From Candidatus Sumerlaeia bacterium (lineage in GTDB: Bacteria > Sumerlaeota > Sumerlaeia > SLMS01): 28,815 nucleotides of DNA. Location: positions 1 to 28,815 of the forward strand of contig JBBQYG010000037.1 in the NCBI GenBank assembly GCA_038208905.1, written 5' to 3'. The notes beneath the pieces were generated by a model, which searched no databases, was not told the DNA's origin, and saw nothing but the letters and a program-made list of their open reading frames with translations. Below are positions 22,019 through 23,875 of the stretch, piece by piece (position 1 is the stretch's first letter; each line of letters begins with the position of its first letter). The position numbers and the translations under genes are program-made.

Positions 22019-22074
22019 AGGAGAGCGCCTTGCCCACCGGAAACCGGAGGCAGGGCGCTCTCCTTCTTTTTTTT
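22019..22074 (+). terminator. Intrinsic terminator ending the alpha operon
   Basis: 16-bp stem aggagagcgccttgcc (22019-22034)/ggcagggcgctctcct (22049-22064), followed by tc and T8. Confidence 0.88.
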
Positions 22075-22117
22075 CGGTTTGACGACCGGACCCGCCACCC
22101 CTCCCTTGGGAACTGCC

Positions 22118-23875
22118 ATGTCACGAGCCATCACGGAATTGTCCAACCCGCTCACGCGGAGTATCGACGCCGTCGATCCCACCGGGATCCTGCGCCTGCT
22201 GCGGCAGTCCGACGCCCAGTTGTTCGCCGGGTGGGAGACCTTTCCCTCGCTGATGGACGAAGATGTGCTCGAATCGCTGGCGCGCGCCGCCTGGCGGATG
22301 GCGCGCCTGCTTCGCGCGCCTGATTCCATCGTGGTCATGGCCGGCGCCGGAACGAGCGGACGCCTCGCCTATCTGCTCTGCCTCGAGTTCAACCGCATCC
22401 TCAAGGAGCGCCGCCTTCCCGAAGTCTTCCGCCCCCTCATGGCCGGCGGGGAAGCCGCCCTGATCATGGCCCAGGAGGCCGCGGAGGACAGCGCCACCGC
22501 CGCCCAGCGCGATATCAAGGACGCCGTTCACGATTCCATCCGCCAAGGGATGTATATCGGAATCACCTGCGGGCTCTCCGCGCCCTACGTCGCGGCCCAG
22601 CTTGAAATGATGGGCGGCAACAGCCGCTTCGAGTCTGTCCTCGTCGGCTTCAATCCCGCCTACATGGCCCGCGCCACCAGCACCGAGGGTTGGGACAAGA
22701 CGGTGAAGGAGATCGTGGATCGCGCGCTGGAGAGCGAGCGCTTCACACTCATTAATCCCGTCTATGGCCCCGAACCCATTACCGGCTCCACGCGCATGAA
22801 GGGCGGCAGCGCCACCAAGATCGCCCTGGAGACCGTCTTTGCCACGGCCCTCTGGATCGTCGAGAACGAGACCGGGCCGGAGTCGGCTCGCGTCGAGCTA
22901 TCGGGTGAGAACCTCCTTCCGCTCCGCCGCCAGGTTGCCGGGCAGCTGCGGCGCTATCGGCAGGCGGTGGAGGCCGCCTATGGAAACATCCCCGCCCTCG
23001 CGGAACTTGTCCGCCTCGCCGGCACGGCGCTGCGTTCCAGCGGCCGCATCCACTATCTGGGGCGCGGCGTCGCGGGGCTCCTTGGCATCATCGACGCCTC
23101 CGAATGCCCGCCGACTTTCGGCTCCGACCTCTATGACGTGCGCGGCTATCTGCGCGAAGGGTGGGAGATGCTGGGCTACTCGCCCGCGGCCATGCGCGCG
23201 CGCGGCCGCGCCTACGAGATCGACCTCGAATACTTCGCTCAAAGCGTGCTCCCCGATGTCACCAAGGGAGACCTCGTGATCGCCGTCGCCGTTGGCATGC
23301 CGGGAGAGATGACGCTGCGCCTGCTCAACGAAGCCGCCCAGGCCAAGGCGCGGACGGCGTTGCTGCTGATCGCGACGGAGCCGCCGAAGCCCGGCGTGCT
23401 TCCCGACTCCATCGGCCACCGCTGCGTCGTGATCGTGCCGTCGCTGGGCTTCGCGCCCGGCGTCAACAACGAGGCCGAACTGGCACTGAAGATCTGCCTC
23501 AACGCCACCACCACCGGCGCGCACATCATGGCGGGAAAGATCTATGAAAACATCATGATCGACCTGCGGATTTCCAACTCCAAGCTCCACGCGCGCGCCA
23601 TCGGGCTGATCGCGCGGCTGCTCACGATCCCCGAGGCCCAGGCCAGCCGCGCGCTGCACTACGCGATCTTCAAGAGCCTCCCCGACGATGCCGAGCTGGC
23701 CGACGCCAGCGTCGCCGTCGCCGTCCAGCGCGCCGTCACCCGCTCCCGCATCGTACCCCTGGCGATGCTGTTAGCCACCGGCAAATTCACCTACGACGAA
23801 GCCGAGGAACGCCTCGCCTCCGAACCCCGCGTCCGCCGCATCGTCGAGGACATCCTCGGGCAGACGCAGGCGTAG
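22118..23875 (+). CDS. Glucokinase regulatory protein (GKRP)-like double-SIS protein; probable N-acetylmuramate-6-phosphate etherase (MurQ family)
   Basis: 585 aa. Motifs TE.SNP, GAGTSGR, AGG...EAAED, GITCGLSAPYV, GPE.ITGSTRMKGGSATKI, DASECPPTFG, GKIYENIMIDLRISNSKL. About twice the length of MurQ. Confidence 0.88.
   Translation: MSRAITELSNPLTRSIDAVDPTGILRLLRQSDAQLFAGWETFPSLMDEDVLESLARAAWRMARLLRAPDSIVVMAGAGTSGRLAYLLCLEFNRILKERRLPEVFRPLMAGGEAALIMAQEAAEDSATAAQRDIKDAVHDSIRQGMYIGITCGLSAPYVAAQLEMMGGNSRFESVLVGFNPAYMARATSTEGWDKTVKEIVDRALESERFTLINPVYGPEPITGSTRMKGGSATKIALETVFATALWIVENETGPESARVELSGENLLPLRRQVAGQLRRYRQAVEAAYGNIPALAELVRLAGTALRSSGRIHYLGRGVAGLLGIIDASECPPTFGSDLYDVRGYLREGWEMLGYSPAAMRARGRAYEIDLEYFAQSVLPDVTKGDLVIAVAVGMPGEMTLRLLNEAAQAKARTALLLIATEPPKPGVLPDSIGHRCVVIVPSLGFAPGVNNEAELALKICLNATTTGAHIMAGKIYENIMIDLRISNSKLHARAIGLIARLLTIPEAQASRALHYAIFKSLPDDAELADASVAVAVQRAVTRSRIVPLAMLLATGKFTYDEAEERLASEPRVRRIVEDILGQTQA

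Follow-up and report, generated by a model that had tools for sequence, protein, structure and literature searches.

The window analysed here, a stretch of 28,815 nucleotides from contig JBBQYG010000037.1 of the Candidatus Sumerlaeia bacterium assembly GCA_038208905.1, carries a gene for a 585-aa protein that is a full-length bacterial homologue of the eukaryotic glucokinase regulatory protein (GKRP). The protein is predicted, with a probability of about 0.75, to be a single-chain, pseudo-dimeric MurNAc-6-phosphate etherase, for which we infer the catalysis, the substrate and the pathway partners. It would consist of two MurQ subunits fused into one polypeptide, with the same architecture and evolutionary origin as eukaryotic GKRP. 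GKRP is a textbook example of an enzyme turned regulator, and in humans GCKR is a major locus for metabolic traits.

The etherase reading draws on the GKRP architecture and fold, on the complementary decay of MurQ motifs in the two halves and on the invariance of the MurQ catalytic residues. It also draws on the replacement of MurQ by the two-SIS form and its co-occurrence with AnmK, on peptidoglycan-salvage neighbours in relatives together with NamZ and BadF kinase genes in the same genome, on the activity reported for eukaryotic two-repeat homologues, and on a score above the cut-off of a MurQ subfamily model.

The gene is one unexceptional representative of a large family of bacterial proteins already tagged with GKRP Pfam domains in public databases. 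A full-text literature search turned up no account of two-SIS GKRP-type proteins in bacteria, and the family is uncharacterised in the literature found, as far as the accessible text of those papers extends. The bacterial two-repeat form is likewise unmentioned in the available passages of a preprint on the eukaryotic homologues (10.64898/2026.05.08.723886).

Table 1. Features of the two-SIS gene and its upstream region, with positions in the window.
Feature	Positions	Strand	Basis or remark
Terminator-like hairpin 3' of rplQ, GGAGAGCGCC ... GGCGCTCTCC, then a T-run	22020..22075	+	43 nt before the start codon
GGGAA purine run, RBS-like	22108..22112	+	5 nt before the ATG at 22118; from sequence inspection only
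Whole gene, 585-aa two-SIS GKRP-type protein, including stop codon	22118..23875	+	
N-half, aa 1-262: SIS-1, lidless MurQ repeat with insertion at ~aa 180-207	22118..22903	+	PF22645 at aa 61-164; positions 3-153 and 171-212 of MurQ model NF003915 match
GAGTSGR, aa 76-82, phosphate-binding loop, N-half only	22343..22363	+	Alignment with 6 MurQs
E120-A-A-E123-D124, the MurQ 'EGAED' motif	22475..22489	+	E120, E123 and D124 invariant in all groups
GPEPITGSTRMK, aa 217-228, MurQ substrate-site motif, N-half only	22766..22801	+	Alignment, conservation
C-half SIS-2, aa 263-476, phosphate loop decayed to GRGVAGL	22904..23545	+	PF22198 at aa 294-390; MurQ model positions 35-259 match aa 281-515
DASECPPTFG, aa 326-335, MurQ catalytic-base motif, C-half only	23093..23122	+	
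GKIYENIMIDLRISNSKLHAR, aa 473-493, start of the lid	23534..23596	+	N487, K489 and R493 correspond to human N512, K514 and R518
C-terminal helical lid, aa 477-585	23546..23872	+	PF20741 at aa 477-576 (2.3e-22); helices in model

Domain architecture and similarity to GKRP

The initial annotation had described two SIS-like halves followed by a C-terminal lid, and the 585 aa indeed contain three GKRP Pfam domains in order, GKRP_SIS_N (1.9e-31), GKRP_SIS_2 (1.6e-16) and GKRP-like_C (2.3e-22), all above their gathering scores. Only the full three-domain architecture is diagnostic, because in control genomes PF22645 by itself is also found in ordinary MurQ. In phmmer searches against PDB chains, frog GKRP (3w0l_B; E 5.7e-86) aligned collinearly over query residues 4-579 and chain residues 29-603, and human GKRP (4bb9_A) gave E 1.1e-85, against only 2.5e-28 for the top MurQ structure, 4s12. 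The C-half alone also matched GKRP SIS-2 plus lid (1.3e-31) better than MurQ (2e-22). Similarity of the whole protein to MurQ amounts to only ~95-100 bits, and identity to the named eukaryotic GKRP sequences is ~33-38%. The score for the NCBIfam MurQ subfamily NF003915 (198.2) exceeds the cut-off of 168; those for the MurQ equivalog TIGR00274 (163, cut-off 302) and for NF009222 (162.1, cut-off 255) are below theirs.

An AlphaFold2 model of the protein (pLDDT 95.1, pTM 0.94) superposes on human GKRP 4bb9 with TMq 0.89, TMt 0.87 and an rmsd of 2.7 Å over 593 columns; across the solved GKRPs the TM range is 0.87-0.89 and the rmsd 2.7-3.1 Å over ~593 columns. Structure matches of the model also include GlmS and tagatose-6-P isomerases.

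Sequence (E ~1e-85), fold (TM 0.89) and the phylogeny described below support the earlier proposal that this is a bacterial full-length GKRP homologue. All seven motif strings quoted for it in that proposal are present in the translation, and the seven human GCKR strings given alongside them all appear in the phmmer alignment to 4bb9. The segment VLVGFNP..MAR..W, held to be absent from MurQ, proved to be an N-half insertion relative to six aligned MurQ sequences.

A composite active site

The MurQ motifs have decayed in a complementary fashion in the two halves. The N-half retains GAGTSGR, the EGAED glutamate and GPE..GSTRMK, and the C-half retains the catalytic-base motif DASECPPTFG and the lid. 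As each half is without a different set of MurQ motifs, one composite MurQ-type site remains, the one in which vertebrate GKRP binds fructose phosphates. The ligand residues of human GKRP are presumably T109, S110, E153, S179, S183, E348, N512, K514 and R518, and the catalytic glutamates of MurQ are taken to be E83 and E114 in E. coli numbering. T79, S80 and R82 of the bacterial protein align with human T109, S110 and R112, E123 with the second catalytic Glu of MurQ and human E153, T150 and S154 with human S179 and S183, and E329 with the first catalytic Glu of MurQ and human E348. The substrate-site motif GPEPITGSTRMK (aa 217-228) aligns with human residues 250-261, GPEGLSGSSRMK.

E329, E123, T79, S80, R82, E219, S224, R226, D326, T333, K458, M480, N487, K489 and R493 are invariant in 35/35 long and 9/9 compact bacterial sequences of the alignment, and these MurQ-type site residues are kept in 37 to 39 of the 39 non-vertebrate eukaryotic sequences. 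T79, S80 and R82 are invariant in all 39 of the latter, and D326, E329 and T333 in all groups. P332 is found in all 35 long bacterial sequences, and both prolines of DASECPPTFG are kept in every one of them, whereas human GKRP has Ile-His in place of this MurQ-type Pro-Pro (P331 and P332). Conserved residues alone are no proof of catalysis: rat GKRP, in which most of the site residues are retained, is described as inactive as an etherase in the available passages of the preprint (10.64898/2026.05.08.723886).

Distribution in bacteria

The two-SIS form was detected in 49 of 75 Sumerlaeota genomes and a MurQ-type match alone in 5; no genome had both. In its own genome, which is 93.9% complete, the gene is the sole MurQ-like gene. 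Within Sumerlaeota, the two-SIS protein replaces MurQ, and 30 of the 33 AnmK-positive Sumerlaeota genomes have the two-SIS protein and no MurQ-type match. A complete Phycisphaerae chromosome and Sulfidibacter corallicola each gave a single match, in keeping with the same one-form-only pattern. The two-SIS form also occurs in some Planctomycetota, some Acidobacteriota and one Omnitrophota record. It is rare in Planctomycetota: of 201 evenly sampled genomes searched at a threshold of E 1e-15, the centre genome alone had it, with MurQ-type matches in 50 genomes and neither form in 150. At 50% identity, the collected homologues reduce to roughly 400 representatives. Identities among Sumerlaeota are 58-63% within the same family, 43-50% within the same order and ~37-44% within the same class, a stepwise drop with kinship that fits long vertical descent.

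Origin of the fused architecture

In a tree of the separated halves, 55/55 N-halves formed one clade and 55/55 C-halves another, each with an SH-aLRT of 100, and all of the 26 MurQs included fell outside both; tree supports here and below are quick-search SH-aLRT values only. It follows that bacteria and eukaryotes have one fusion event in common. The outcome named in the initial annotation as refuting, placement among independently duplicated MurQ proteins, did not arise; the halves grouped with eukaryotic GKRPs, corresponding half with corresponding half.

Independently duplicated MurQ was considered as a source of the bacterial proteins and ruled out, as bacterial and eukaryotic N-halves and C-halves make up these same two clades (SH-aLRT 100). 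The tree also hints that the N- and C-halves stem from different MurQ subgroups, in which case the fusion would have joined two paralogues instead of tandem duplicates.

As to direction, for which the initial annotation had offered both alternatives, the balance tips slightly towards an origin of the two-SIS architecture in bacteria by fusion of two MurQ units, in which case it would still be the standard Sumerlaeota etherase, and eukaryotes would have acquired the finished gene horizontally from a donor akin to Sumerlaeota. Under both LG+G4 and LG+C20+F+G4, the maximum-likelihood root separates 'compact' groups made up of bacteria alone from all other sequences (SH-aLRT 98 and 99), and the main cluster of eukaryotes sits a further three nodes inside; the N-half tree agrees with a bacterial root (97). 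The reverse course, in which the fusion took place in an early eukaryote that had acquired murQ and the gene later passed to bacteria, spreading among Sumerlaeota, Planctomycetota and Acidobacteriota, appears unlikely but has several observations on its side. Bacterial monophyly (29 rows) was not rejected in the AU test (p-AU 0.439) and costs only 5.95 log-likelihood units; some eukaryotic sequences are basal, with weak support (81-83), when the C-half is analysed alone; and the named eukaryotic holders are phylogenetically broad, comprising Metazoa, choanoflagellates, Capsaspora, Amoebozoa, Metamonada and a jakobid. Against a eukaryotic source stand the bacterial roots under both models and in the N-half tree, the pattern of vertical descent within Sumerlaeota, the bacterial nature of both the parent gene and the substrate, and the presence of the gene in bacterial salvage operons of several phyla.

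These data suggest that the two domains were fused in bacteria and that the design is no eukaryotic invention, which shifts the beginnings of the architecture to bacteria, probably along with the initial loss of one of the two active sites. If a bacterial origin is correct, human GCKR descends from a fused bacterial cell-wall enzyme and not from a duplication inside eukaryotes. The family also offers prokaryotic proteins that are easy to express, with which the passage from a symmetric homodimeric enzyme to an asymmetric protein with a single site could be tested.

Genomic neighbourhood

Upstream of the gene lies an rpsD-rpoA-rplQ operon and downstream of it a phosphate ABC transporter, all on one strand and at ~65% GC, and the rplQ synteny is common to 8 related Sumerlaeota loci. 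These neighbours are uninformative on function.

Eukaryotic contamination of the contig was also considered; the bacterial flanks, the GC content and the rplQ synteny in the 8 relatives rule it out.

Peptidoglycan-related genes adjoin the two-SIS gene in several relatives. In locus L050 the order is BadF-type kinase, two-SIS gene and NamZ, with the kinase gene overlapping the start of the two-SIS gene, and in L049 it is Amidase_3, NlpC/P60, MR_MLE epimerase, two-SIS gene and NamZ. L052 and L057 have the two-SIS gene followed by a beta-lactamase-family/NamZ fusion, and in L066 it lies between an outer-membrane protein gene and a GH3 NagZ fused to a beta-lactamase-family domain. NamZ is a neighbour in 4 of 71 related loci, and any recognisable peptidoglycan-related neighbour was found within 6 kb in 8 of the 71.

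The genome that carries the gene encodes three NamZ homologues and one BadF-family kinase, the latter 30% identical to the kinase of L050; these genes are scattered, and no salvage operon was found around them. AnmK was detected neither in this genome nor in the 10 other genomes of its family (0/10), and no nagA match in this genome reached the cut-off (best match 25.7 bits against 225.65). As neither was found, neither the step that normally feeds the etherase reaction nor the one that normally drains it can be accounted for in this organism.

Predicted function

In the proposed pathway, MurNAc would be freed from peptidoglycan fragments by the three NamZ homologues and phosphorylated by a BadF/NagK-type amino-sugar kinase, and the two-SIS protein would then convert MurNAc-6-P to GlcNAc-6-P and D-lactate. 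This would fill in the step for which MurQ is missing in the salvage of peptidoglycan sugars by Sumerlaeota, some Phycisphaerae and some Holophagae, the activity being a predicted one.

Counted against the etherase reading were the TIGR00274 score below cut-off, the failure to find AnmK and nagA, the count of 8 of 71 loci with peptidoglycan-related neighbours, and the uninformative neighbours of the gene itself.

SIS domains bind many different phosphosugars, and the composite site could process, or only bind, another one, such as the 6-phosphate of another 3-O-substituted or amino sugar, making the protein a lyase or isomerase outside MurNAc salvage in at least this lineage. The absence of AnmK from the genome and its family, the lack of a nagA match above cut-off, the separation of the gene from cell-wall genes in its own genome, the subthreshold TIGR00274 score and the structural matches to GlmS and tagatose-6-P isomerases all point that way. 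Another substrate is nevertheless quite improbable given that the exact MurQ catalytic motifs are invariant, with both prolines of DASECPPTFG in all long bacterial sequences, that the protein substitutes for MurQ across Sumerlaeota, and that relatives have NamZ, NagZ, amidase and kinase genes near the two-SIS gene and NamZ and BadF kinase genes are present in the genome studied here.

Very little speaks for a non-catalytic or moonlighting phosphosugar sensor regulating a sugar kinase, for instance of the BadF/NagK type, as vertebrate GKRP does with glucokinase: the fold and ligand-site residues are shared with GKRP, and in L050 the kinase gene overlaps the two-SIS gene, but kinase adjacency is limited to 1 of 71 loci, matches to glucokinase (PF02685) and hexokinase (PF00349) both numbered 0 in the 93.9%-complete genome, so that their absence is probable, not certain, and the protein begins at the equivalent of human residue 26-29, without the N-terminal segment (human 1-30). 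According to the available passages of the preprint (10.64898/2026.05.08.723886), residues 1-30 of human GKRP rearrange on glucokinase binding, and inhibition of glucokinase is specific to jawed vertebrates, the tunicate and lancelet orthologues being non-inhibiting. Of the three options offered by the initial annotation, an etherase, a sugar-phosphate-sensing kinase regulator or both, the etherase is well supported and the kinase regulator is not, given the missing N-terminal extension, the failure to find a glucokinase and the restriction of glucokinase inhibition to jawed vertebrates.

Comparison with known systems

The vertebrate GKRPs (human GCKR 4bb9 and 4lc9; Xenopus 3w0l) resemble the bacterial protein in being collinear over the full length, in fold (TM 0.87-0.89) and in the corresponding phosphosugar-site residues. 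They differ in that the bacterial protein is without the first ~25 residues, its residue 4 aligning with human 29, and in that they are regulators, whereas no glucokinase partner was found in the bacterial genome.

Non-vertebrate eukaryotic GKRP homologues were reportedly described as etherases by Veiga-da-Cunha et al. 2009. The GKRPs of Naegleria gruberi and lancelet, of ~570-630 aa, share with the bacterial protein the two-SIS core and lid, the origin of the halves and the composite-site residues. The bacterial protein differs from them in its host, in its neighbourhood (a ribosomal operon here, peptidoglycan-salvage operons in relatives) and in its presumed role, which would be the recycling or scavenging of bacterial cell-wall sugars and not the digestion of prey. 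In the passages available from the preprint (10.64898/2026.05.08.723886), the Naegleria, lancelet and frog proteins, all of them two-repeat homologues, are reported to be active MurNAc-6-P etherases.

With MurQ, the two-SIS protein shares the catalytic motifs, the presumed chemistry and, in some genomes, the partners NamZ, NagZ, kinase and AnmK, and it is an alternative occupant of the same genomic role, the two never occurring together in the 75 Sumerlaeota genomes. MurQ has ~300 aa and one SIS domain and is a homodimer according to the available preprint text (10.64898/2026.05.08.723886), from the symmetry of which we infer two equivalent sites; the two-SIS protein has 585 aa in one chain and one intact site.

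Start codon and upstream signals

The reading frame begins with the ATG at 22118 and ends with the stop codon at 23873-23875. The same frame is open further 5' to a TTG at 22079, which would give a protein of 598 aa. The ATG is favoured because homologues begin at the same MSRA(I/V)TE and because GGGAA lies 5 nt upstream. A search for a sigma-70-type promoter 5' of the two-SIS gene found none. In the terminator-like hairpin that follows rplQ, the inner hairpin with its T tail (22046-22063) was found by program, and the longer outer stem of 10 bp by direct inspection.

A full-length GKRP homologue encoded in Sumerlaeota

The 585-aa product of the GKRP-type gene (the query) carries GKRP_SIS_N (aa 61-164, 1.9e-31), GKRP_SIS_2 (aa 294-390, 1.6e-16) and the GKRP lid domain (aa 477-576, 2.3e-22) of Pfam. 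In a phmmer search of all PDB sequences, residues 4-579 aligned with 29-603 of Xenopus GKRP (E 5.7e-86) and residues 4-580 with 29-605 of human GKRP (E 1.1e-85), and the top MurQ structure reached only 2.5e-28. An AlphaFold2 model made without templates from 76 sequences (pLDDT 95.1, pTM 0.94) superposes on human GKRP 4bb9 with TM scores of 0.89/0.87 and an rmsd of 2.7 A over 593 columns; MurQ chains span just half of it (query-normalised TM ~0.4). These results support the main claim of the initial annotation, a bacterial full-length homologue of human GCKR (GKRP), and all the motif pairs it quoted were found in the translation and in the phmmer alignment to the human protein.

The reading frame is already open from a TTG at 22079. 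However, homologues share the same first residues, MSRA(I/V)TE, and GGGAA lies 5 nt 5' of the ATG at 22118, which is therefore the likely start codon. The window holds a ribosomal-protein and RNA-polymerase operon, in which rpsD, rpoA and rplQ were confirmed using Pfam, and rplQ is followed by a terminator-like hairpin, the GKRP-type gene and a phosphate-type ABC transporter (binding protein, permease and ATPase by Pfam). The hairpin is strong and closes the rpsD-rpoA-rplQ operon, leaving just 43 nt to the GKRP-type gene. The interval between the two yielded no sigma-70-like promoter, and expression may need read-through or an unrecognised promoter.

GC content is ~65% along the entire window, the closest named relatives among the matches listed are Candidatus Sumerlaeota MAGs (58-63% identity), and the rpsD-rpoA-rplQ-gene order was found again in 8 related loci. 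A contaminant origin was rejected on all three counts; given its relatives and the shared gene order, the gene is bacterial.

Features of the window, related loci and the query's own genome (G000)
Feature	Location	Strand	Description
GKRP-type gene	ATG 22118, stop 23873-23875	+	585 aa
Terminator-like hairpin	22020-22075		10-bp GC-rich outer stem, inner CCGG/CCGG stem, T-run
Related locus	L050		BadF/NagK-type kinase, GKRP-type gene, NamZ
Related locus	L049		Amidase_3, NlpC/P60, MR_MLE epimerase, GKRP-type gene, NamZ
Related locus, Planctomycetota	L052:6465-8912 (fusion)		GKRP-type gene, beta-lactamase-family/NamZ fusion
Related locus, Planctomycetota	L057:1313-3817 (fusion)		GKRP-type gene, beta-lactamase-family/NamZ fusion
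Related locus, Acidobacteriota	L066:7495-10272 (fusion)		Outer-membrane protein, GKRP-type gene, GH3 NagZ/beta-lactamase-family fusion
Compact-form loci	L062-L064, L066-L070, L072-L074, L076		Acidobacteriota/Holophagae and some Planctomycetota
NamZ homologues, G000 (n=3)	C4:57840-58442, C3:29052-29660, C30:22404-22985
BadF/NagK-type (BadF-family) kinase, G000 (n=1)	C185:6355-7248

Distribution of the two-SIS form

Among 8000 candidates scored from a 90%-identity protein collection, 1667 proteins matched at E <= 1e-10. Of the best 120 of these, 119 have the full set of three GKRP Pfam domains; the exception, a 359-aa fragment (P0077), has two. A 50%-identity library gave 403 representatives at E <= 1e-30. 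With one genome per species, 75 loci were retained: 36 from Sumerlaeota, 21 from Planctomycetota, 7 from Acidobacteriota (including the cultured Sulfidibacter corallicola M133), 1 from Omnitrophota and 8 without a phylum assignment, the other 2 (Verrucomicrobiota and Hydrogenedentota) being ordinary MurQ-type matches.

Within the window's own phylum, 54 of 75 genomes match the query at E <= 1e-20. Counted from the match table, 49 contain the two-SIS form (two MurQ-like halves and a lid in one chain), which gives a single full-length match in 43 of them and a match that is broken up or spans contig ends in the other 6. Another 5 have only a MurQ-type match, to query residues ~270-514; none of the 75 has both. 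The closer the kinship, the higher the identity to the query: 58-63% for members of its family, 43-50% for those of its order and ~37-44% for those of its class. Among 201 evenly sampled Planctomycetota genomes the two-SIS form occurs only in the centre genome, and MurQ-type matches in 50. Sumerlaeota is thus the main bacterial home of the two-SIS form.

In four Sumerlaeota genomes (G060, G062, G065 and G030) the query matches two or three adjoining pieces of a single open frame of 626-766 aa, which suggests lineage-specific insertions between the SIS halves. A 'compact' form (~460-525 aa, 30-35% identity to the query, all site residues kept) includes S. corallicola NZ_CP071793.

Bacterial two-SIS proteins already carry GKRP Pfam tags in databases; among the matches listed, JGI names them MurNAc-6-P etherase and NCBI hypothetical. 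A full-text literature search found no description of bacterial two-repeat GKRP-type proteins; Veiga-da-Cunha et al. 2009 and supplementary files, which lay outside its reach, could mention them. The finding matters more for the family as a whole, and for what it says about how GCKR originated, than for the query gene alone.

Active site and predicted function

Each half of the query was aligned with six MurQs. The N-half (aa 1-262) retains the GAGTSGR phosphate loop, the EGAED motif (E120, E123, D124) and GPE.ITGSTRMK, and is without DASECPPTFG and the lid. The C-half retains DASECPPTFG (E329) and the lid motif GK.Y.N.M.DL..SN.KL, and has lost the three motifs that the N-half retains: GRGVAGL and GRAYEID stand where the phosphate loop and the EGAED motif would be, and a shortened segment where GPE..GSTR would be. 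On these alignments the decay of MurQ motifs is complementary and leaves a single composite MurQ-type site.

In the phmmer alignment these site residues fall opposite human T109, S110, E153, S179, S183, E348, N512, K514 and R518, which form the phosphosugar site of GKRP. Seventeen residues (T79, S80, R82, E120, E123, D124, E219, S224, R226, D326, E329, T333, K458, M480, N487, K489 and R493) do not vary across the 35 long and 9 compact bacterial rows, and each is shared by 37 to 39 of the 39 rows from non-vertebrate eukaryotes. All 35 long bacterial rows also have the MurQ-type P332, whereas human GKRP has His at this position.

The query is predicted to be an active single-chain MurNAc-6-P etherase (probability about 0.75). 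According to a May 2026 preprint on GKRP evolution, non-vertebrate eukaryotic GKRPs (Naegleria, lancelet) are good etherases and glucokinase inhibition is reported in jawed vertebrates only (10.64898/2026.05.08.723886); this reading also rests on the absence from the query of the N-terminal segment present in vertebrate GKRP, and on the failure to find a glucokinase of either family in the query's own genome (93.9% complete). Action on a different phosphosugar substrate is unlikely. A role as kinase regulator, which the initial annotation had offered beside the etherase function, is very improbable on the same three grounds of missing glucokinase, missing segment and inhibition reported in jawed vertebrates only.

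The GKRP-type gene is the sole MurQ-like gene of its genome. AnmK was not found there, nor was any nagA above its cut-off, and this amino-sugar salvage set, with three NamZ homologues, one kinase and no glucokinase found, is unusual for an etherase-keeping bacterium. Across the phylum, AnmK occurs in 33 of 75 genomes (30 with the two-SIS form, 1 with MurQ, 2 with neither). Salvage genes adjoin the GKRP-type gene in only 8 of 71 loci; the adjoining fusions join a beta-lactamase-family serine hydrolase to NamZ or to GH3 NagZ.

Origin of the two-SIS form

The same preprint traces eukaryotic GKRP to bacterial murQ, through its duplication and uneven fusion (10.64898/2026.05.08.723886). When 55 N-halves, 55 C-halves and 26 MurQs were placed in one tree, all N-halves formed one clade and all C-halves another (SH-aLRT 100 each), so the bacterial and eukaryotic two-SIS proteins stem from a single fusion. 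Different MurQ subgroups join the N-halves and the C-halves (supports 84 and 94, from a small MurQ sample biased to query-like sequences); if real, this would indicate fusion of two already diverged murQ paralogues, not of a fresh tandem duplicate.

Eukaryotic labels come from source names for 17 of 26 rows (fish, lamprey, Ciona, sea cucumber, scallop, Capsaspora, three choanoflagellates, Dictyostelium, Balamuthia, Anaeramoeba, Paratrimastix, Stygiella, two 'Eukaryota sp.' and one EukProt transcript) and from clustering for the other 9. A joint N+C matrix was rooted by setting the MurQ set against both halves. With LG+G4 as with LG+C20+F+G4, the root separates two purely bacterial compact groups (Acidobacteriota and some Planctomycetota) from the rest (SH-aLRT 98 and 99), which puts the family's ML root at the compact form. 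The query's Sumerlaeota clade is the next branch, and the main eukaryotic cluster, in which one Sumerlaeia MAG protein joins 24 eukaryotic rows, is nested deeper (supports 84-94). The N-half tree concurs with this rooting (97); the C-half tree is without clear resolution. Constraining the 29 bacterial rows to be monophyletic lowers the log-likelihood by only 5.95 units (p-AU 0.439). With biological priors included, a bacterial origin of the two-SIS form is somewhat to fairly clearly favoured, and the evolutionary direction leans bacterial.

The MAG protein, P0071 (625 aa, Candidatus Sumerlaeia bacterium), is the only bacterial row within the main eukaryotic cluster (cluster support 90-94); it may point to the donor lineage or be an artefact. 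P0176 and P0184 ('Eukaryota sp. TZLM3-RCL / TZLM1-RC') are eukaryotic GKRP-type proteins that lie apart from it, close to where the long-form clade starts to branch, a placement that hints at more than one transfer between bacteria and eukaryotes.
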